A stretch of DNA of 32,000 bases from Candidatus Saccharimonadota bacterium (GTDB lineage: Bacteria; Patescibacteriota; Saccharimonadia; Saccharimonadales; UBA4665). The stretch lies in contig CP023991.1 of assembly GCA_003516025.1 (NCBI GenBank), forward strand, positions 751,374-783,373. The letters are read 5' to 3'. The position numbers and the translations under genes were made by a program. Shown here piece after piece: positions 2,607 to 10,328 of this stretch (its first letter is position 1; the number at the start of each line of letters is the position of its first letter). The notes under the pieces are model-generated. The model saw nothing but the letters and a program-made list of their open reading frames with translations. It did not search any database and was not told the DNA's origin.

Positions 2607-3446
2607 CTACCGGTTAAACGTCGAGTGGGAGTCCGCGAGGCCGTATTCGTCGAAGATGCGCACCAGTTCAGGAGTGGCTTCATAGGGCCGGTCAGGGTGC
2701 GTACAGCGCTGGCGATGGCCTTCTATGGTATACGAGGTCGTAGACAATGACATATCGGTGTCATAGAGAGGATGCCCCATAAGGGAATTTATAACGTCGT
2801 GCTCGACCTGGTAGGCCTCCAACTCGTCGGATATTATGGAGTTACGTAAGTTCCCAGCCATTGCCGCAGTCGCCTCCGCTTGACGGGCGTGAGTAAATTC
2901 ATGAGCGATACGCGAGCCAATACCTAAAACTGAGTCCTGCGGAGTAATCCGGGAAGCAATGAACGGGCGGGACGTATAAAGAGCACCGGTTTCAGAATCT
3001 ACGTTAAAATACCGGTGATGGCGAGCCAGCGTCGTCGGTTTAAATGTCGGCGTTACCGCCGGTATCCGCGCCAGGCCGGTAACCGATTCGGTGACGAATT
3101 TGCCAGCATAAGCCGCCGTCTTACCCTTTGACTTGGCCTGAGCCACGATACGATCCATGCGCTGAGCCGTCGGTGCCAGCATAGAGTAATCTAAAACAAA
3201 CGCGCCATCTTCGGTATCCCGCACGGGGAAGAGCGTATATACATCCATATCGGCGTATTGCTTGGGTAAACAGAGTGTATACCCGACCTGGTTAGGCATA
3301 ACAGCCGATTCTACCGCGGACTTGAGCTGAAGGGCGGTATCACCCAAACTACGGCGTACTTTAGGTTCATCAAGCACCAGTACCGTTTCATTAACCAGCC
3401 GGTCAAAGGCCTGGTGGCGCGCCCGCTGATCAGGAGACGTAAACAT
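2607..3446 (-). CDS. Hypothetical protein with HExxH zinc-metallopeptidase-like motif (279 aa)
   Basis: IAHEFTHARQ (HExxH) is followed about 25 residues later by SDELEAY, a possible third Glu ligand in the gluzincin style. Track ORF 2607..3575 is trimmed to ATG 3446, which sits 6 nt after a TTGATA-17-TATAAT promoter. The longer version would overlap the pth start. Confidence 0.6.
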   Translation of the reverse strand: MFTSPDQRARHQAFDRLVNETVLVLDEPKVRRSLGDTALQLKSAVESAVMPNQVGYTLCLPKQYADMDVYTLFPVRDTEDGAFVLDYSMLAPTAQRMDRIVAQAKSKGKTAAYAGKFVTESVTGLARIPAVTPTFKPTTLARHHRYFNVDSETGALYTSRPFIASRITPQDSVLGIGSRIAHEFTHARQAEATAAMAGNLRNSIISDELEAYQVEHDVINSLMGHPLYDTDMSLSTTSYTIEGHRQRCTHPDRPYEATPELVRIFDEYGLADSHSTFNR

Positions 3447-3452
3447 ACATGT

Positions 3453-3481
3453 ATTATAGAATATTTTATAATATATATCAA
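3453..3481 (-). promoter_or_regulatory. Promoter of the HExxH gene (TTGATA-17-TATAAT), leaderless geometry
   Basis: Reverse complement: TTGATA (3481-3476), a 17-nt spacer, TATAAT (3458-3453), then 6 nt to ATG 3446. Confidence 0.55.
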
Positions 3482-3493
3482 CTGGGTCTGGTC

Positions 3494-3522
3494 TTGACGG
3501 CAGGGCAGTAGCTGGTGATACT
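3494..3522 (+). promoter_or_regulatory. Promoter of pth (TTGACG-17-GATACT), leaderless geometry
   Basis: TTGACG at 3494-3499, a 17-nt spacer, GATACT at 3517-3522, then 7 nt to ATG 3530. It lies back to back with the divergent promoter at 3453-3481. Confidence 0.55.
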
Positions 3523-3529
3523 AAGACCA

Positions 3530-4171
3530 ATGGCATTATTCCAACGCAGACCTCAAACCAGTGCGCCCCTTTCATATACCACTATTGGCTTGAACCGCAA
3601 CCTGCTTATTGTTGGTCTCGGCAACATTGGTAAAGAGTACGACCTAACCCGTCATAACATCGGTTTTGCCTGCGTCGACGCGTTCGTCCATTCCCAGTCC
3701 GACATGGGCGGCTGGGTCGACAAAAAAGACCTCAAATGCCTGGTTTCTACCGGACAAATCGGCGAAACCCGGGTCATGGCCGTTAAACCGACTACTTTTA
3801 TGAACCTGAGCGGTGAAGCCGTCCAGGCCATTAGCCATTTTTATAAAATCCCGCTGGAGCAGATCATTGTTGTCCACGACGAACTCGACGTTGATTACGG
3901 CCAGATTCGCATGCGTATCGGCGGCAGCGCCGCCGGCCACAACGGCATTAAGTCGGTCACCCAGCACATCGGTGAAGACTATGGCCGTGTGCGTATAGGC
4001 ATCGGTCCTAAAAATCCACCGCAGATCGACAGCGCGGACTTTGTGCTGCAAAAGTTTTCCAAAGAAGAGCAGGGACATTTCAGCGAACTGACCCGCGAAA
4101 CTACGGCTATTCTGACTGAACTGGCCTACGGTTCAAGCCTCCAGGCTGAAACCCGTAACTTTTTAATCTAA
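3530..4171 (+). CDS. pth: Peptidyl-tRNA hydrolase
   Basis: Contains LIVGLGNIGKEYDLTRHNIGF, GGSAAGHNGIKS and DFVL motifs typical of Pth. ATG 3530 is favoured by promoter geometry. An in-frame TTG at 3590 would give the more canonical MNRNLLIVGLGN start. Confidence 0.9.
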   Translation: MALFQRRPQTSAPLSYTTIGLNRNLLIVGLGNIGKEYDLTRHNIGFACVDAFVHSQSDMGGWVDKKDLKCLVSTGQIGETRVMAVKPTTFMNLSGEAVQAISHFYKIPLEQIIVVHDELDVDYGQIRMRIGGSAAGHNGIKSVTQHIGEDYGRVRIGIGPKNPPQIDSADFVLQKFSKEEQGHFSELTRETTAILTELAYGSSLQAETRNFLI

Positions 4172-4172
4172 C

Positions 4173-4460
4173 TTAGTTCTGGGGCGGCTGCGGCAGGACG
4201 CCGTTTTCGGCCAACAAGAATTTGATGTCCGTTATGCGCGCCAGGTAACGGGCATGCTGATGCTGGGCATATTCAAGCGATGGCCCCGGGCCCGTAAAAG
4301 AACGGTCCATATCGTCTACACGGTCGGAAGCTACAGACACTACTTCGAGCAATTCCTGACTCTGATCATAAGGCCAGGTAGTCCGTTCCGGCCGCAGGTC
4401 GAGCACGGCATTGTCAAAATCGTCTAATTCATACTGTCGGGTAGCATTGTTTGGTTTCAT
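4173..4460 (-). CDS. Hypothetical small protein (95 aa)
   Basis: ORF with ATG at 4460, preceded by TTTACA-17-TAGTTT and then 7 nt. I recognise no motif. Its stop lies 1 nt from the pth stop. Confidence 0.45.
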   Translation of the reverse strand: MKPNNATRQYELDDFDNAVLDLRPERTTWPYDQSQELLEVVSVASDRVDDMDRSFTGPGPSLEYAQHQHARYLARITDIKFLLAENGVLPQPPQN

Positions 4461-4505
4461 GCATATCAAACTACCACTTCGCCGACGTGATGTAAATGCA
4501 TTTAG

Positions 4506-4853
4506 CTAAGCTTGTGCTTTTAGGGCAGCAAGCTGTTTACTTGGGTGGATGCCTGGAATTACCGTATGCGAACCGGTCGCTTCTATATTTGTCGGCGTCA
4601 TTTTTTTAAGTATGGCAGTTCCGATTTCACTTACTGCTTTTTGAAGCCCTGCGGTAGGCTGTTCAAGCATTCTGTTTGTCAGATGATAATGCACGCCTAA
4701 CGTATCGTACGCGGGGTTAACGCCATCGTTGATAGCCAGACTGCCCAGATGGTTGTCTATAGTAACGTGTGGTAATTCAGGTGGTAATTCGTGATGGCCC
4801 GGGAATAATACGGCTAACTCTTCAGGATTTAATCGAACGTCTTGTTCATTCAT
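4506..4853 (-). CDS. Hypothetical small protein (115 aa)
   Basis: Track ORF 4506..4961 is trimmed to ATG 4853 (MNEQDVRLNPEE...). The longer form would read through a terminator hairpin and a consensus promoter. No recognisable motif. Confidence 0.5.
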   Translation of the reverse strand: MNEQDVRLNPEELAVLFPGHHELPPELPHVTIDNHLGSLAINDGVNPAYDTLGVHYHLTNRMLEQPTAGLQKAVSEIGTAILKKMTPTNIEATGSHTVIPGIHPSKQLAALKAQA

Positions 4854-4860
4854 AAAGTAT

Positions 4861-4889
4861 ATTATAGCATACTTATTAAGTTTTATCAA
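4861..4889 (-). promoter_or_regulatory. Consensus promoter (TTGATA-17-TATAAT) 7 nt upstream of ATG 4853
   Basis: Reverse complement: TTGATA (4889-4884), a 17-nt spacer, TATAAT (4866-4861), then atacttt and ATG. Confidence 0.6.
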
Positions 4890-4905
4890 TAAGAATTTAG
4901 ACACT

Positions 4906-4950
4906 AAAAAAGGCCTACAAGAGGGGGTGGGCACCGCTTGTAGGCCTTTT
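4906..4950 (-). terminator. Rho-independent terminator (potentially bidirectional)
   Basis: An 11-bp perfect stem, AGGCCTACAAG (4911-4921) pairing with CTTGTAGGCCT (4937-4947), encloses a 15-nt loop. An A6 run (4906-4911) gives U6 on the minus strand, and a T4 run lies on the plus-strand side. Confidence 0.7.
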
Positions 4951-5301
4951 CCAGAGGACAACTATGGTTGTCCTCTCGCTGGAACAGCCCTTCAACCCAC
5001 CTTGAAGGCCTCCGTATTACGTATACTCGCAGAGAACACATAATACGGCCCACTCAGGTTTTTTCCGTCATTCGCCACGGCTCAAATAAAACGAGGGGGA
5101 ATACGGGGTTAAAGGGACTAGGCTGCATCTCAACGGGTTGGGACACAATCTAGTAGTTTTAGAGCGCTCACACTCGGAGGTGCAAGCTAAGGACAAGTGG
5201 AGGGTAACAACTTGGGATCTTAGCACGCTCTAAAACGAATCTAACAAATTGTTAGAAATTGGGGGGTATAAGGTGCGTAAATTCGTTGAACGAACTTACA
5301 G
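4906..5301 (-). ncRNA. Candidate structured non-coding RNA, about 395 nt, class unknown
   Basis: The segment is bounded by a near-perfect promoter (5336-5308) and the terminator at 4906-4950, and has no credible ORF. It contains several perfect stems:
- 4954-4962 / 4967-4975 (9 bp)
- 4989-4995 / 5002-5008 (7 bp)
- 5012-5019 / 5041-5048 (8 bp)
- 5156-5166 / 5226-5236 (11 bp; GTTTTAGAGCG / CGCTCTAAAAC)
- TCTAAC / GTTAGA near 5241-5257. Confidence 0.45.
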
Positions 5302-5307
5302 ATTGCT

Positions 5308-5336
5308 ATTCTAGCAAATTTATGGCCAAGTGTCAA
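5308..5336 (-). promoter_or_regulatory. Promoter of the candidate ncRNA (TTGACA-17-TAGAAT)
   Basis: Reverse complement: TTGACA (5336-5331), a 17-nt spacer, TAGAAT (5313-5308). The predicted transcription start is near 5301. Confidence 0.6.
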
Positions 5337-5473
5337 TACTTTAATACATTCTTGTGTAATCTGCCACTATTTAGCATAAACATATTAAATTGATGAACTA
5401 CTTCTTTCACGAAGCAGGACATGCTTGCATATTGGCCTGGCAGACCGATAATTACAGCAGACAAGGGGGAAGT

Positions 5474-6337
5474 ATGCGTCAGCCACAAATACAGTCAGTA
5501 AACATCTCGAACAGCCGGATAAAAGACCTGTTCCACCAGGTTTCGCCGCCTGTCGAAAACCTCTATATACAAAGTGATAATGTAGATGATTTATTGGCCC
5601 GGCCGCGGGTCGCTATAGTAGGCAGCCGTAAAATCACCGCTTACGGCAAGGCGGTAACCCGCCATCTCAGCAGCGAACTGGCGGGGCAGGGCATTGTAAT
5701 TGTCAGCGGGCTGGCCTATGGAGTAGATGCTGTAGCCCATACGGCGGCACTGGAGGCTGGAGGCCTAACCATCGCGGTACTGCCAAGCAGCCTGGAAGAC
5801 ATTTATCCATCAGCCCATAACGGCCTGGCGCGCCGCATTATTAGTCAGGGCGGGGCGCTGCTTACGGAATATCCTCCCGGCACGCCCGCTTATAAAAGCC
5901 AGTTTGTCGAACGTAACCGGATCGTCAGCGCCGTTAGCTGCGCGCTGTTAATTACCGAAGCAGCCATTAACAGCGGTACTATGCATACCGCCCGTTTCGC
6001 GCTGGAGCAGGGTAAAGACGTACTGGCAGTACCGGGCAACATTACCAGCGCCACTTCGGCCGGTACCAACAACCTTATTAAGAGCGGTGCCATAGCCGTA
6101 ACCGAAACAGCCGATGTGCTGCGGGTACTGGGACTCACACCCTTAGCGCGCCGGCAACCCGCTGGGGCCACGCCGCAGGAACAACGTATTCTTGATCTGA
6201 TGACAACCACCGGCAACGGTGACCAGCTGCTCAGTATGTCGGAGCTCAGTACGCCGGAGTTCAATCAGGCTCTAACCATGCTTGAAATTACTGGAAAAAT
6301 AGTTTCACTGGGCGCCAACCAGTGGGCTGTAGCCTAG
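5474..6337 (+). CDS. dprA: DNA processing protein DprA/Smf
   Basis: Rossmann-like DprA core: VAIVGSRKITAYG, VSGLAYGVDAVAHTAAL, FVERNRIVSA, EAAINSGTMHTARFALEQGKDVLAVPG. Track start 5390 (TTG) is trimmed to ATG 5474, which follows the AAGGGGGA Shine-Dalgarno element. Confidence 0.9.
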   Translation: MRQPQIQSVNISNSRIKDLFHQVSPPVENLYIQSDNVDDLLARPRVAIVGSRKITAYGKAVTRHLSSELAGQGIVIVSGLAYGVDAVAHTAALEAGGLTIAVLPSSLEDIYPSAHNGLARRIISQGGALLTEYPPGTPAYKSQFVERNRIVSAVSCALLITEAAINSGTMHTARFALEQGKDVLAVPGNITSATSAGTNNLIKSGAIAVTETADVLRVLGLTPLARRQPAGATPQEQRILDLMTTTGNGDQLLSMSELSTPEFNQALTMLEITGKIVSLGANQWAVA

Positions 6338-6371: not shown

Positions 6372-6539
6372 ATGAAAGGCATGATATTTATCGGCATCAC
6401 CATTGGCGGATTAGCCGGCGGCTGGATCGGCACTATGCTCGATCATGGCAACGGCCTGGGCGCCTGGAGTATTATTTTAAGCACGGCCGGCTCCCTGGCC
6501 GGTATCTGGGCGGCTATTCGCATTAACGACTATTTATAA
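6372..6539 (+). CDS. Small Gly-rich two-helix membrane protein (55 aa), not in ORF track
   Basis: My own translation gives MKGMIFIGITIGGLAGGWIGTMLDHGNGLGAWSIILSTAGSLAGIWAAIRINDYL, which has two hydrophobic Gly-rich segments. A TACACT -10 element (6359-6364) lies 7 nt upstream of the ATG. It resembles small GlsB/YeaQ/YmgE-like membrane proteins, but that assignment is tentative. Confidence 0.55.
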   Translation: MKGMIFIGITIGGLAGGWIGTMLDHGNGLGAWSIILSTAGSLAGIWAAIRINDYL

Positions 6540-6657
6540 TTTTGCTTTCCTGACCGAGTTCGGTATCATAGGCATTTGTGCCGCGATATAACGCAATTAA
6601 TTTTACAGCGCCCCGTTACTTAAGATTCACCGGCGAAAGACGTATACTTATATAAAC

Positions 6658-8988
6658 ATGAGCAAAAACTTAGTTATCGTAGAGAGCCCGGCTAAAGCCA
6701 AGACCATCGAGAAATACCTCGGTGGTGACTTTAAGGTACTGTCGAGTGTCGGCCACATCCGCTCCATCGCCAAAAAAACCAAGGACGGCACAGCGCCTAT
6801 CGACACGCAGGCCGGATTTAAGACGGTGTACGAAGTTGACCCCGAGAAGAAAAAGGTTATTACCGAACTCAAGAAGGCCATCAAGGACGCTGATGACGTA
6901 TGGCTCGCCACTGATGAAGACCGCGAAGGGGAGGCAATCGCCTGGCACCTGTGCGAAGTACTCAAACTCGATCCTACGAAAACAAAGCGCATTGTGTTCC
7001 ACGAAATTACCAAAGGCGCCATTGAAGACGCTATCAAAAAGCCGCGAACGGTTGATATGAACCTGGTACAGGCCCAGCAGGCCCGCCAGATTCTCGACCG
7101 GCTGGTTGGGTTTGAATTATCACCAGTGGTCTGGCAGAAGGTTCCCGGTGGCAAAAGCGCCGGCCGCGTACAATCGCCAGCCGTACGATTGCTCGTGGAA
7201 CGCGAGCGTGAAATCGACGCCTTTAACGGTACGTTCAGCTTTAAGGTAACAGCTACCTTCGCTGTCGCCGGCGAAGAGGTTAAGGCGGAACTGCCTAAGC
7301 GCTTTGACACCGAAGAGGAAGCCCAGCAGTTCCTGGAAAGCCTGCAAAGCGCGAATTTTACGGTTTCCAAAGTAACCAAGAGCCCAAGCAGCCGCAATCC
7401 AGGCGCGCCGTTCACCACCAGTACGCTGCAACAGGAAGCTAACAGCCGGCTTGGATTTGGTTCTAAAGCTACCATGTCCAGTGCCCAGCGTTTGTATCAG
7501 GAAGGTAAAATTACCTATATGCGTACCGACTCAGTCAACCTGAGCGGTCAGGCATTGGCGCAGATGAGCGACTACATTCGTAGTGAGTTCGGTGAGCAGT
7601 ATCATCAGGTTCGCAAATTCAAAACCAAGTCTGCCGGTGCTCAGGAAGCTCACGAAGCTATCCGCCCGACTGATGTACGCCAGCTAACAGCCAGCGGTGA
7701 TAATTACGATCAAAAACTGTATGACCTGATTCGCCGCCGCACATTGGCCAGCCAAATGGCACCGGCCAAGCTTGAGAAAACGACTATTACCATTACTGTT
7801 TCGACTTCCAAGCAGGTTTTTGAGGCCAAGGGCGAAGTTGTGATATTTGACGGTTTCCTGAAGGTCTACGGCGCCAACAAGAAGGACGACACGTTGCTGC
7901 CGGCCGTCGCCAGCGGGGACACACTGGACTTGCAGGAAGCCGGGGCCCGCCAGGTCTTTGCCCGGCCACCAGCCCGCTATACCGAGGGTAGCCTGGTTAA
8001 AAAGCTCGAAGAGCTCGGTATCGGCCGTCCGAGCACCTACGCGACCATTATCAATACCGTCCAGGTTCGCGGTTACGCCGAAAAGGGCGAAGCCGAAGGC
8101 ACGCCGCGCGAGGTGATCGTCCTCAACCTGGACAAGACCGCTGTCAAACGGGAAGTGGTCACCGAGAAGACCGGCTCTGACCGTGGCAAATTGGTGCCGA
8201 CAGCCAGCGGGCAGGTAGTCAGCGACTTTCTCACTAACCATTTTGACCAGGTTGTCGACTATGGTTTCACGGCCAACGTCGAAGAAGAGTTCGATGAAAT
8301 CGCACAGGGCAAAATTGAACGCAATAAGATGTTGGATGAGTTCTACAAGCCATTCCACCAGTTAATCGTGGACAGCGGCGGCATTGACCGGGCCAGCGTA
8401 GCTCAGGCCCGTGAAATTGGTATCGACCCCAAGAGCGGCAAACCCGTTCTGGCCCGTTTTGGCCGCTTCGGGCCGATGTTGCAGCTGGGAAACCCGCCCA
8501 AGGAATCCGACGAAAAACCGCAGTTCGCGCCACTACCCGCTGGCGCCAAGCTCGAAACGGTCACTTTAGAACAAGCCCTCAAGGCATTTGAACTTCCCCG
8601 CGAAGTCGGTACGACTGCCGACGGCAAGACCATCAAGGCCAATATCGGCCGCTTCGGGCCGTACATCCAGATAGATAAGACGTTCGTGTCTATCAAGCCG
8701 CTCGACCCCCATACCATTACCGAAACTGAAGCCCGCGAATTATACGCTGAAAAGCAACAGAAAGACGCTGAAAAGTACATCGCTGAGTTTGAAGGCGGCA
8801 TTCAGGTCCTCAATGGCCGTTACGGCCCCTACATTACCGACGGCAAGAAGAATGCCAAAATTCCGAAAGATAAAGATCCGAAGTCACTTACTCGCGTGGA
8901 GTGCCTGGATCTCTTAGCAGCTACCCCTGACAAAAAGAAACCATTTCGTCGTGGCGCTACAAGCCGTAAAACTGCCAAGCGATCGTAA
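6658..8988 (+). CDS. topA: DNA topoisomerase I
   Basis: Toprim N-terminus LVIVESPAKAKTIEKYLG and active-site region GKITYMRTDS. The C-terminal domain has three GRFGPY-type repeats (ARFGRFGPMLQL, ANIGRFGPYIQI, LNGRYGPYITD) and a Lys-rich tail, with no Cys4 zinc ribbons. Confidence 0.97.
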   Translation: MSKNLVIVESPAKAKTIEKYLGGDFKVLSSVGHIRSIAKKTKDGTAPIDTQAGFKTVYEVDPEKKKVITELKKAIKDADDVWLATDEDREGEAIAWHLCEVLKLDPTKTKRIVFHEITKGAIEDAIKKPRTVDMNLVQAQQARQILDRLVGFELSPVVWQKVPGGKSAGRVQSPAVRLLVEREREIDAFNGTFSFKVTATFAVAGEEVKAELPKRFDTEEEAQQFLESLQSANFTVSKVTKSPSSRNPGAPFTTSTLQQEANSRLGFGSKATMSSAQRLYQEGKITYMRTDSVNLSGQALAQMSDYIRSEFGEQYHQVRKFKTKSAGAQEAHEAIRPTDVRQLTASGDNYDQKLYDLIRRRTLASQMAPAKLEKTTITITVSTSKQVFEAKGEVVIFDGFLKVYGANKKDDTLLPAVASGDTLDLQEAGARQVFARPPARYTEGSLVKKLEELGIGRPSTYATIINTVQVRGYAEKGEAEGTPREVIVLNLDKTAVKREVVTEKTGSDRGKLVPTASGQVVSDFLTNHFDQVVDYGFTANVEEEFDEIAQGKIERNKMLDEFYKPFHQLIVDSGGIDRASVAQAREIGIDPKSGKPVLARFGRFGPMLQLGNPPKESDEKPQFAPLPAGAKLETVTLEQALKAFELPREVGTTADGKTIKANIGRFGPYIQIDKTFVSIKPLDPHTITETEARELYAEKQQKDAEKYIAEFEGGIQVLNGRYGPYITDGKKNAKIPKDKDPKSLTRVECLDLLAATPDKKKPFRRGATSRKTAKRS

Positions 8989-9269: not shown

Positions 9270-10328
9270 ATGGCACAGACCACCACGTCCTCACCTGATG
9301 TTCAGACTACTACTCTGAGCACCGAGGAATACATTAATGACATTCTAGAGACCATTGACCGCGAGCGCGAACGAGAAATCATTTCACGCCGTTTCGGCCT
9401 CTTCGACCGTAAAGAAACCCTTGAACAAATAGGGGAATTATTAGGTATTACCCGGGAACGTGTGCGTCAGCTGGAAAAGTCGGTCCTATCCCGCCTGAAA
9501 GCTTCAGCAGAGCAGGGCACTGTCCCCCGTATCGCCGACCTACAGGTCACTTTTATAGAAAAACTGCACCACATGGGTGAATTAGCCCGCGTCAGCACAC
9601 TGACCGAGCAGGTGAGTGACACTCACACCAAGCTTGAACAGGCTCGTATCGCCTTCCTGGCCCAACTTTGCCCGGAACTGATTGTTATCAACGACGACGA
9701 CCATTTTCATATGACGGTCGGCATCTTGGCCACGCGCGACGCCCATGCCATTAAAGCTGATGTCGCCAAGATAATTGATGCCATCAAAAAGGCGGGCGAG
9801 CCTTCAGATATCGAAGCCGTCTCCAAAGCCGCCAGTATCAGTGACGTCCAGCAGGCGGGAGCTTTAGCCAGTACTTCTAAGGCACTGGCGACTTTAAATG
9901 GCCGCTGGGGCCTCGTTAAGTGGCCTATGGTCAATCCGAAGAACATTCGCGATAAGATCTACGTTATTCTCAAAGAACACGGCAAACACATGCATTTCAA
10001 TGAAATCGCCGAAGCTATTAAAGGCAGCGAATTTAAGCGCAAAGACGTCACCACCCAAGCCATCCATAACGAACTAATCAAAGATAAGCGTTTCGTCCTG
10101 ATTGGCCGCGGTATCTACGCCCTCAAAGAGTGGGGTTACGAGAAGGGAACGGTCAGCGACATCATTAGCGATGTCCTTAAGCAGGAAGGCGGTCCGCTGC
10201 ACCGCGACGAAATCGTTAAGCGCGTTCTTAAGAGCCGTTATGTTAAAGAGACTACTATCCTCCTGAACCTCCAGGGCAAACCGCAGTTCAAGCGTGTCGC
10301 CAAGGCTACGTACGCTTTAGCCGAATAG
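9270..10328 (+). CDS. Sigma-70 region-4-like HTH protein fused to two HARE-HTH (RNAP delta-like) winged-helix modules
   Basis: The N-terminus, REIISRRFGLFDRKETLEQIGELLGITRERVRQLEKSVLSRLK, looks like sigma region 4.2, and no region 2 is present. The C-terminus, HFNEIAEAIKG...AIHNELIKDKRFVLIGRGIYALKEWGY, matches the HARE-HTH pattern of RpoE/delta. A second weaker copy follows (LHRDEIVKRVL...FKRVAKATYALAE). Confidence 0.8.
   Translation: MAQTTTSSPDVQTTTLSTEEYINDILETIDREREREIISRRFGLFDRKETLEQIGELLGITRERVRQLEKSVLSRLKASAEQGTVPRIADLQVTFIEKLHHMGELARVSTLTEQVSDTHTKLEQARIAFLAQLCPELIVINDDDHFHMTVGILATRDAHAIKADVAKIIDAIKKAGEPSDIEAVSKAASISDVQQAGALASTSKALATLNGRWGLVKWPMVNPKNIRDKIYVILKEHGKHMHFNEIAEAIKGSEFKRKDVTTQAIHNELIKDKRFVLIGRGIYALKEWGYEKGTVSDIISDVLKQEGGPLHRDEIVKRVLKSRYVKETTILLNLQGKPQFKRVAKATYALAE

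Follow-up and report, generated by a model that had tools for sequence, protein, structure and literature searches.

A conserved, highly structured RNA gene divergent from dprA in Saccharibacteria, very probably of a family absent from Rfam

What is encoded by some 400 nucleotides (nt) of DNA that are framed by a consensus promoter and an intrinsic terminator and hold no credible protein gene? The question is raised by positions 4906-5336 of a 32,000-nt stretch of contig CP023991.1 (assembly GCA_003516025.1, Candidatus Saccharimonadota bacterium), the whole of which we call the window. The segment lies beside dprA, and the best matches of the window DprA are all metagenome-assembled genomes of Saccharibacteria (Saccharimonadales). 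A sequence-only reading of this DNA had described the segment as an orphan, highly structured RNA with a transcription unit of its own. Our analysis indicates that it is very probably a real, conserved noncoding RNA gene of a new family, absent from Rfam, and that the RNA is probably part of an undescribed core machinery of Saccharibacteria.

The signals that delimit the transcript lie on the minus strand. In the promoter scan 11 of 12 consensus positions were matched, with a TG upstream of the -10 box that makes it an extended -10 (TGcTAGAAT, 5316-5308), and transcription is predicted to start at about 5303-5301. The other end is formed by a G+C-rich stem, GGCCUACAAG/CUUGUAGGCC, followed by a run of six U; the stem was read as 10 base pairs (bp), one fewer than first counted, and the consensus terminator scan overlooked this hairpin because its loop is 15 nt long. 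Both signals are conserved: in a profile of 151 sequences the TTGAC and TG..TA..AT columns (within columns 1-29) are at least 98% identical in about 150 homologues, so that the promoter hexamers rank among the best-conserved columns, and the terminal hairpin with its U tract is likewise retained. According to the list of open reading frames (ORFs), the longest ORF inside the segment does not exceed 61 amino acids (aa), in keeping with the earlier statement that no credible one exists, and in the alignment of homologues the indel lengths between conserved blocks are not multiples of three. Directly behind the terminator a second consensus promoter, TTGATA-17-TATAAT (4889-4861), which had also been pointed out before, serves the next minus-strand ORF (4853-4506). 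Since the genes downstream of the RNA are unrelated between species or convergent, the RNA is not the leader of any gene. The segment is thus a stand-alone gene with its own strong sigma-70-type promoter and intrinsic terminator, untied to the downstream genes, and the independent transcription unit of the sequence-only reading stands.

To describe the distribution of the gene, we gathered 80 species-representative Saccharibacteria loci via DprA. In 72 of them the RNA was found directly upstream of dprA and divergent from it (single-sequence nhmmer, E 1e-72 to about 1e-12), and four more (L061, L065, L077, L080) hold clearly diverged copies; three loci are truncated upstream and only one (L063) is without the RNA at that site. 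The RNA therefore occupies a conserved position in 76 of the 77 informative species loci. A metagenome scan with a two-part motif (TACCCTCCACT, a gap of 35-65 nt, CTAAYCCCTTTAA) added at least 120 further loci, and all told 151 distinct copies are full-length, with 351-559 nt when the promoter is counted. The RNA itself, about 395 nt in the window, measures 320-520 nt in relatives, and the profile search recovered full-length homologues down to E 1e-100. DprA is merely 46-65% identical over loci in which 15-nt blocks of the RNA show no mismatch. The locus is arranged as der, pth, variable DNA, RNA (minus), dprA (plus), a 55-aa ORF and topA; wherever RNA and dprA are both present (164 loci) the two are divergent, and in about eight loci dprA is missing and the RNA adjoins topA. 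Between the RNA 3' end and the convergent pth lie 3 to 3142 nt, occupied by unrelated genes, among them those for a Ser/Thr kinase, a DUF2207 membrane protein, a pilin-like protein and many products without a Pfam match, and in many loci pth ends 3-30 nt from the RNA. As judged from these loci, the family appears to be single-copy, syntenic and almost universal in the Saccharibacteria (Saccharimonadales) surveyed. In the window, positions 4173-4905 form a hypervariable island between the RNA 3' end and pth, and its two filler ORFs, 4853-4506 (115 aa) and 4469-4173 (98 aa), matched nothing in Pfam and have no homologue among 200 related loci.

The predicted transcript folds far better than expected by chance. 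The minimum free energy (MFE) of the minus strand is -153 kcal/mol as against -101 ± 6 kcal/mol in 100 dinucleotide shuffles, none of which was as good (z = -8.3), whereas the plus strand folds less well in the same test (z = -6.5). G-U pairs are frequent in all helices, and the opposite strand would have A-C mismatches in their place; these pairs, the promoter and the U tract assign the RNA to the minus strand. The 5' end and the 3' end each form a local hairpin and do not pair with each other. The perfect helices that the sequence-only reading had listed (the 9-bp hairpin, the 8-bp stem, the 11-bp stem with its nested GCTAAG/CTTAGC stem and the TCTAAC/GTTAGA hairpin) were all recovered at their coordinates, and the high degree of structure claimed there is backed by the z score and by covariation, which supports at least five helices including a long-range one (Table 1). 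Two domains result: a 5' one made up of P1, P2 and a three-way P3, and a 3' one that the long-range helix closes and that ends in a covarying hairpin with an invariant loop.

Table 1. Features of the RNA gene and examples of viral sites; positions are those of the window unless a locus is named
Feature	Position	Strand	Remarks
dprA	start codon 5474	plus	RNA gene lies between dprA and two small minus-strand ORFs
Promoter	5308..5336	minus	-35 TTGACA 5336-5331, 17-nt spacer, -10 TAGAAT 5313-5308
Predicted transcript	4906..5303	minus	about 395 nt (396-nt sequence analysed), without credible ORF
P1	5277..5299	minus	9-bp 5' hairpin GUAAGUUCG/CGAAUUUAC, loop UUCAA
Joining strand	5261..5276	minus	conserved GCACCUUAUA 5276-5267, then less conserved C run 5266-5261
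P2	5240..5256	minus	hairpin UCUAAC/GUUAGA, 100% paired, nearly invariant
P3 domain	5156..5236	minus	11-bp helix GUUUUAGAGCG 5236-5226 / CGCUCUAAAAC 5166-5156, encloses two hairpins
Outer stem around capping hairpin	5224-5219/5191-5186	minus	GCUAAG/CUUAGC
P3 capping hairpin	5194..5214	minus	CAAGU/ACUUG, 11-nt loop UGUUACCCUCC 5209-5199
P3b	5168..5185	minus	hairpin of variable sequence, UUGCAC/GUGUGA in the window (MFE fold)
Extra hairpin	5118..5153	minus	clade-specific, only in the window and L001; alignment columns 285-323
Long-range helix, 5' strand	5108..5116	minus	CCCUUUAAC, partner GUUGAAGGG 4996-4988
Central domain	5009..5107	minus	lineage-specific helices including the 8-bp stem 5048-5041/5019-5012 (MFE fold)
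G-rich strand	4988..5001	minus	GGUGGGUUGAAGGG, invariant; 3' part 4996-4988 pairs with 5116-5108
P6	4954..4975	minus	9-bp hairpin GAGGACAAC/GUUGUCCUC, 4954-4962/4967-4975; missing in about 15 of 77 relatives
P7	4906..4950	minus	terminal 10-bp hairpin 4946-4937/4921-4912, 15-nt loop CGGUGCCCACCCCCU 4936-4922, U6 4911-4906
Viral sites (examples)	L209:1933-1949; L204:2332-2348; L223:10397-10413		

Fifty diverse 5' domains, in an unfitted MAFFT alignment, served to test the proposed structure of P1, P2, P3 and the capping hairpin. In this alignment 90.7% of the cells are paired as against 27-43% when the partners are slid, 20 of 30 pairs are changed on both sides, and none of 500 shuffles reached any of the observed measures. 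All nine pairs of P1 have changed on both sides among these sequences. The hairpin is followed by the conserved element GYACCUUAUA, of which GYACCUU is nearly invariant; the adjoining C run is gone in some members (L060, L062, L071). The base of P2 (CUAAC/GUUAG) belongs to the invariant elements, and its loop is swapped in many relatives for an extra helix of variable length, the insertions forming stems of their own. P3 is 96.7% paired with 10 of its 11 pairs changed on both sides, and in the distant L086, L136 and L128 the pairing is retained with wholly different sequence. Within the P3 domain, the 15-nt block GUUGUUACCCUCCAC shows no mismatch in nearly all loci. Variation of the capping loop UGUUACCCUCC in distant clades is confined to its 5' part, and its core UACCCUCCAC, which holds an anti-Shine-Dalgarno-like CCUCC, is unchanged down to the most divergent copies. 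At the position of P3b relatives place a hairpin of unrelated sequence. One strand of P3, GUUUUAGAGC (5226-5236), is identical to the 10 nt with which the Streptococcus pyogenes Cas9 repeat begins; the candidate was rejected and the match judged a coincidence, the helix covarying to unrelated sequences in distant members.

The two invariant strands that flank the central domain form the long-range helix. Its 5' strand lies inside the invariant block ACUAACCCCUUUAAC, present in the window as GUCCCUUUAAC, and the G-rich strand that provides its partner likewise has no mismatch in nearly all loci. Eight of the nine pairs are invariant or show a one-sided change only (U-G to U-A), and the closing pair is C-G in 169, G-C in 15, A-U in one and U-A in one of 186 distinct copies, with no mismatch. 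The central domain in between differs in length and aligns poorly between clades. The 7-bp hairpin 4989-4995/5002-5008 of the sequence-only reading can form in the window and does not hold for the family as a whole, in which its 3' arm UUGAAGGG pairs with CCCUUUAAC in the long-range helix. Only in the window's clade is GGUGGG preceded by CCUUCAA, and there the UUGAAGG hairpin (4989-5008) presents GGUGGG as a 6-nt loop, so that it may be an alternative fold or a switch in this clade. Further downstream, six of eight pairs of P6 have changed on both sides, with just 66% of the cells paired in the unfitted alignment, and the spacing from the G-rich strand to the terminal loop is bimodal across homologues. 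P7 is found with 94 distinct stems, which are 99.9% paired over 9 bp as against at most 48% when slid; a second count gave 92% of the cells paired and seven pairs changed on both sides. Inside its 15-nt loop two inner G-C pairs, replaced by A-U or G-U in L192, L138 and the L065 clade, leave the invariant 9-nt apical loop UGCCCACCC (4933-4925). P7 is both the intrinsic terminator and a conserved module, and the conservation with compensatory changes in relatives that the sequence-only reading had named as a check on its proposal was found.

Does this RNA belong to a known class? We searched it against the 4227 families of Rfam 15. At the gathering score neither the window nor any of 16 related loci matched a family, which leaves the gene an orphan as first described. 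Permissive searches (E ≤10 on 4700-5500, 801 nt, and E ≤5 on 20 homologues) yielded nothing consistent, at most scattered chance matches to models of microRNAs, snoRNAs and leaders. Neither threshold gave a match to RNase P RNA (RF00010, RF00011), signal recognition particle (SRP) RNA, 6S RNA, OLE, ROOL, GOLLD, HEARO or raiA. The tmRNA model (RF00023) gave one partial match in one of the 20 homologues, which scored 12.8 bits where the gathering score is 47 and, at E = 0.21, is at chance level, and ARAGORN called no tRNA or tmRNA in the window or in the 151 homologues. Inspection of the 396-nt sequence revealed neither the P4 strands of RNase P RNA (GGAAAGUCC / ACAGAA..GGCUUA) and a P1 pairing of the ends, nor the marks of a tmRNA (T-loop or T arm, ACCA end, acceptor pairing of the ends, tag frame). 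The earlier view that the RNA is neither RNase P RNA nor tmRNA is thus upheld by Rfam, ARAGORN and signature inspection alike. The covariation-backed fold is multi-branched, unlike the rod-like 6S RNA with its central bubble. No description of the RNA was found in the full-text literature, including queries with the invariant sequences. RNase P RNAs of the candidate phyla radiation (CPR) are divergent and need lowered score thresholds, at which all circular CPR genomes examined, including two Saccharimonadia, yielded an RNase P RNA of the RF00010 type (Lui et al., PMC8172020). As a conventional class-A RNase P RNA is reported there for Saccharimonadia, rnpB, on this published evidence, lies elsewhere in these genomes.

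The 3' hairpin also occurs outside the gene. The 17-nt motif GYGGUGCCCACCCCCUC was found in 55 IMG/VR contigs as against two for the reversed-sequence control; GenBank phages gave chance 20-mers only. Just one of the 55 viral contigs (L081) bears the rest of the RNA, next to genes for RecT-like, FtsK-like and methylase proteins. In the other 54 (L202-L255) the loop CGGUGCCCACCCCCU caps hairpins whose stems differ from contig to contig, and 44 of 52 distinct viral sites have at least six consecutive flanking pairs, compared with 0.3% of control positions. Most of these hairpins are intergenic and 11 are followed by a T run; their neighbours are lysis genes, a portal gene and unknowns, with an amidase and a lysozyme-like protein among the products, and some of the hairpins precede by 10-70 nt a start codon that has GGAGGG or AGGGG in front of it. 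The 3' hairpin thus appears to be a portable module common to the host RNA and to predicted viral transcripts. In L224 (about 9440-9600) and L225 (about 7400-7560), on the minus strand, the viral hairpin joins the 3' half of a tRNA to a following 5' half: a T arm and acceptor strand CUCCCCG-A come first, then CGGGGAG and a D arm, with the anticodon-stem strands matching in permuted order. The unit reads as a circularly permuted tRNA-like element, on which ARAGORN makes no call; several GGCA..G.GTTCCTAT repeats lie nearby.

In host DNA the loop motif is limited to the RNA gene, bar a few partial direct copies just downstream. These consist of the loop and one arm and lie 30-1000 nt from the gene (L070:3287-3320, L157:5185-5215, L160:3633-3655, L055:28-45, L101:2157-2175); they resemble attachment-site scars, a possible origin for which no integrase was found. 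No integrase came out of the Pfam scan, either from ORFs that flank a viral hairpin or from the variable regions of the hosts, and the notion that the viral hairpins themselves are attachment sites is unsupported.

How might such an RNA act? With some reserve we favour the view that it works as a folded particle, that is, an RNA-protein complex or an RNA-only machine, and not as a base-pairing regulator, because in size, in invariant joining strands and in its long-range helix it is closer to RNase P RNA, tmRNA or OLE than to small base-pairing RNAs. A conserved partner, either a G-rich RNA or a protein, would be contacted through the exposed, invariant C-rich loops UACCCUCCAC and UGCCCACCC, and viruses, with the hairpin loop on their own transcripts, would plug into or compete for the same partner. 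That viruses carry the hairpin suggests that something in the cell, either the G-rich strand of this RNA or a protein, recognises it in trans. Inside the RNA, GGUGGG (5001-4996), just 5' of the long-range helix, is fully complementary to CCCACC of the terminal loop (6-8 bp by clade). Judged by this complementarity, the chances that UGCCCACCC docks on the GGUGGG strand are about even; docking would create a pseudoknotted core stacked on the long-range helix, and the terminator hairpin would then double as a structural element. A bolder version, which we put forward only tentatively and hold to be rather less probable than its starting point, is that Saccharibacteria, perhaps alone, own an extra housekeeping RNA machine, either a ribozyme or a ribonucleoprotein (RNP) core, of a class unrelated to RNase P, tmRNA, SRP or 6S. 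Its portable 3' hairpin, with the loop CGGUGCCCACCCCCU, would be a recognition tag, and viruses would have copied it onto their transcripts, the permuted tRNA-like unit among them, so as to hijack the machine or block it.

Several points weigh against these proposals. The ends of the transcript and its stability are predictions from sequence, and the survey was anchored on dprA and on motifs of the RNA, which bears on the taxonomic range and on the copy number per genome. The viral hairpins could be functionally unrelated to the host RNA, for instance as protective 3' ends. Docking comes without covariation because both of its sides are invariant; in L110, L186, L148 and L182 GGUGGG is degenerate and the loop unchanged. 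GGUGGG has competing partners, GCACCUU or the CCUCCAC loop, and L077 carries a compensatory change that favours pairing of GCACCUU with RRGGUG. This last pairing, which is compensated in L077 and uncompensated in L195 and L053, may form but was not adopted. A pairing of the 5' C run ACCCCC with GGUGGG, proposed by RNAalifold, was rejected: the C run is lost in several members and GGUGGG stays invariant.

Four other explanations of the gene have to be weighed against a folded particle. The RNA could be a trans-acting base-pairing regulator or sponge whose C-rich loops (CCUCC, CCCACCCCCU) pair with Shine-Dalgarno-like sites of mRNAs; in Firmicutes the C-rich loops of RsaE and RoxS block or tune translation in this manner. 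The loop UACCCUCCAC does contain an anti-Shine-Dalgarno core, the 3' loop reads CACCCCCU, the ribosome-binding site of the window dprA is AAGGGGGAAG, and the GGAGGG or AGGGG shortly behind some viral hairpins would suit such a role. We nevertheless consider a regulator unlikely: base-pairing small RNAs (sRNAs) seldom have such a size, a multi-domain fold, invariant joining strands or a long-range helix, and the invariance reaches well past CCUCC. Moreover, many window genes have a -10 box abutting the ATG and a weak or no Shine-Dalgarno sequence, which would leave few targets for a global sponge, and when the locus flanks were searched for complementary targets, nothing but the antisense strand of the RNA gene came up. 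It is still less probable that the RNA gene or its 3' hairpin is a feature of mobile elements, namely a phage attachment site or its relic, with the viral hairpins as attP. tRNA and tmRNA genes are classic integration targets, and the partial hairpin copies downstream of five host genes, the hypervariable DNA between the RNA 3' end and pth and the viral contig L081 with its RNA would all fit. The lack of an integrase by the viral hairpins and in the variable DNA of the hosts speaks against it, as do the viral stems, which are unlike the host stems, so that attL and attR would not rebuild the hairpin; and the idea accounts for the hairpin copies, not for the conserved 350-nt body.

It is very improbable that the segment is a cis element, be it a leader or riboswitch or a control of the divergent dprA by promoter interference or antisense overlap. 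Such a role would agree with the constant divergence from dprA in 164 loci, with a -35 box that often lies 5-25 nt from the dprA start, and with a terminator that is regulable in principle. Against it, the downstream genes are unrelated or convergent, about eight loci keep the RNA without dprA, the next gene in the window has its own consensus promoter, no riboswitch model matched, and the terminator loop is invariant, for which a plain on/off terminator has no need. Least of all do we expect a very divergent RNase P RNA, tmRNA, SRP RNA or 6S RNA that escapes the standard models. The size, strong promoter, single copy and near-universality of the RNA are similar to those of such housekeeping RNAs, RNase P RNAs of CPR bacteria are known to be divergent (PMC8172020), and there is the partial tmRNA match of 12.8 bits; yet apart from this single chance-level hit no model matched at permissive E and ARAGORN was negative, the ends are unpaired, T-loop, ACCA, tag frame and P4 sequence were not found, and Saccharimonadia have an RNase P RNA of the RF00010 type (PMC8172020). 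A folded particle of a new family therefore remains the reading that we prefer.

Other observations in the window concern its protein genes. The -10 box of the 4889-4861 promoter ends 7 nt before the ATG of ORF 4853-4506, so that the mRNA would be leaderless, and a TATAAT-like box abuts the start codon in topA (TATATAAAC-ATG, 6636-6660), der (GTTATAAT-ATG, about 1120-1145) and others. Only about half of 21 long ORFs show any Shine-Dalgarno-like motif, and leaderless translation may be common in this genome. The 55-aa ORF between dprA and topA (6372-6539) encodes a glycine-rich, hydrophobic product that is conserved in the same place in most related loci (34-74% identity) and has no Pfam match. 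On the minus strand between der and pth lies a 322-aa ORF (2607-3575) for which neither Pfam nor tblastn against the related loci gave a match; at its 5' end it overlaps the region of the opposite strand where pth is annotated to start.

Large, highly conserved classes of bacterial RNA are rarely found, and RNase P RNA, tmRNA, OLE and the omega RNAs of IscB and TnpB opened new biology. Saccharibacteria are host-dependent CPR bacteria of soil, water and the human mouth with reduced genomes, in which retained genes are likely to matter. That the loops are invariant in spite of about 50% protein identity, and that the gene keeps one position in nearly all species surveyed, argues for a function that is essential and specific to the lineage. 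Copies of the module in viruses offer a handle on its partner and suggest a new kind of RNA mimicry between virus and host. Culturable and genetically tractable strains of Saccharibacteria exist.

Among the known systems, RNase P RNA shares with the RNA described here its size, strong promoter and near-universality in a lineage, as well as a long-range helix of two invariant strands (compare P4), and differs in that our RNA has no model match, no P4 strands and no end-to-end P1. The tmRNA is alike in size, in housekeeping-type conservation, in a pseudoknotted architecture, which for our RNA is a prediction, and in partial copies of the 3' end nearby and in viral contigs, as known for ssrA. In contrast to tmRNA, our RNA is without a tRNA-like domain, ACCA or tag frame and negative in ARAGORN and Rfam, and its viral copies are self-contained hairpins with stems of their own and no adjoining integrase. 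The sRNAs RsaE and RoxS likewise expose C-rich loops able to pair with G-rich ribosome-binding sites; they are simple hairpins of about 100 nt without homology to our RNA, which is four times larger, multi-domain and has invariant strands outside its loops. OLE of the Firmicutes resembles it as a large, lineage-restricted, single-copy RNA with invariant nucleotides amid covarying helices and as a presumed RNP. Nevertheless, OLE is about 600 nt long as against about 400 nt here, belongs to another phylum and gave no model match, and our RNA is a stand-alone unit without linked genes like oapA, oapB or oapC. ROOL and GOLLD, finally, are also large, ornate RNAs linked to phages. They measure 580-800 nt and are borne by phages or prophages, whereas our RNA sits complete on the chromosome in a conserved gene order and only a hairpin of about 35 nt is viral.

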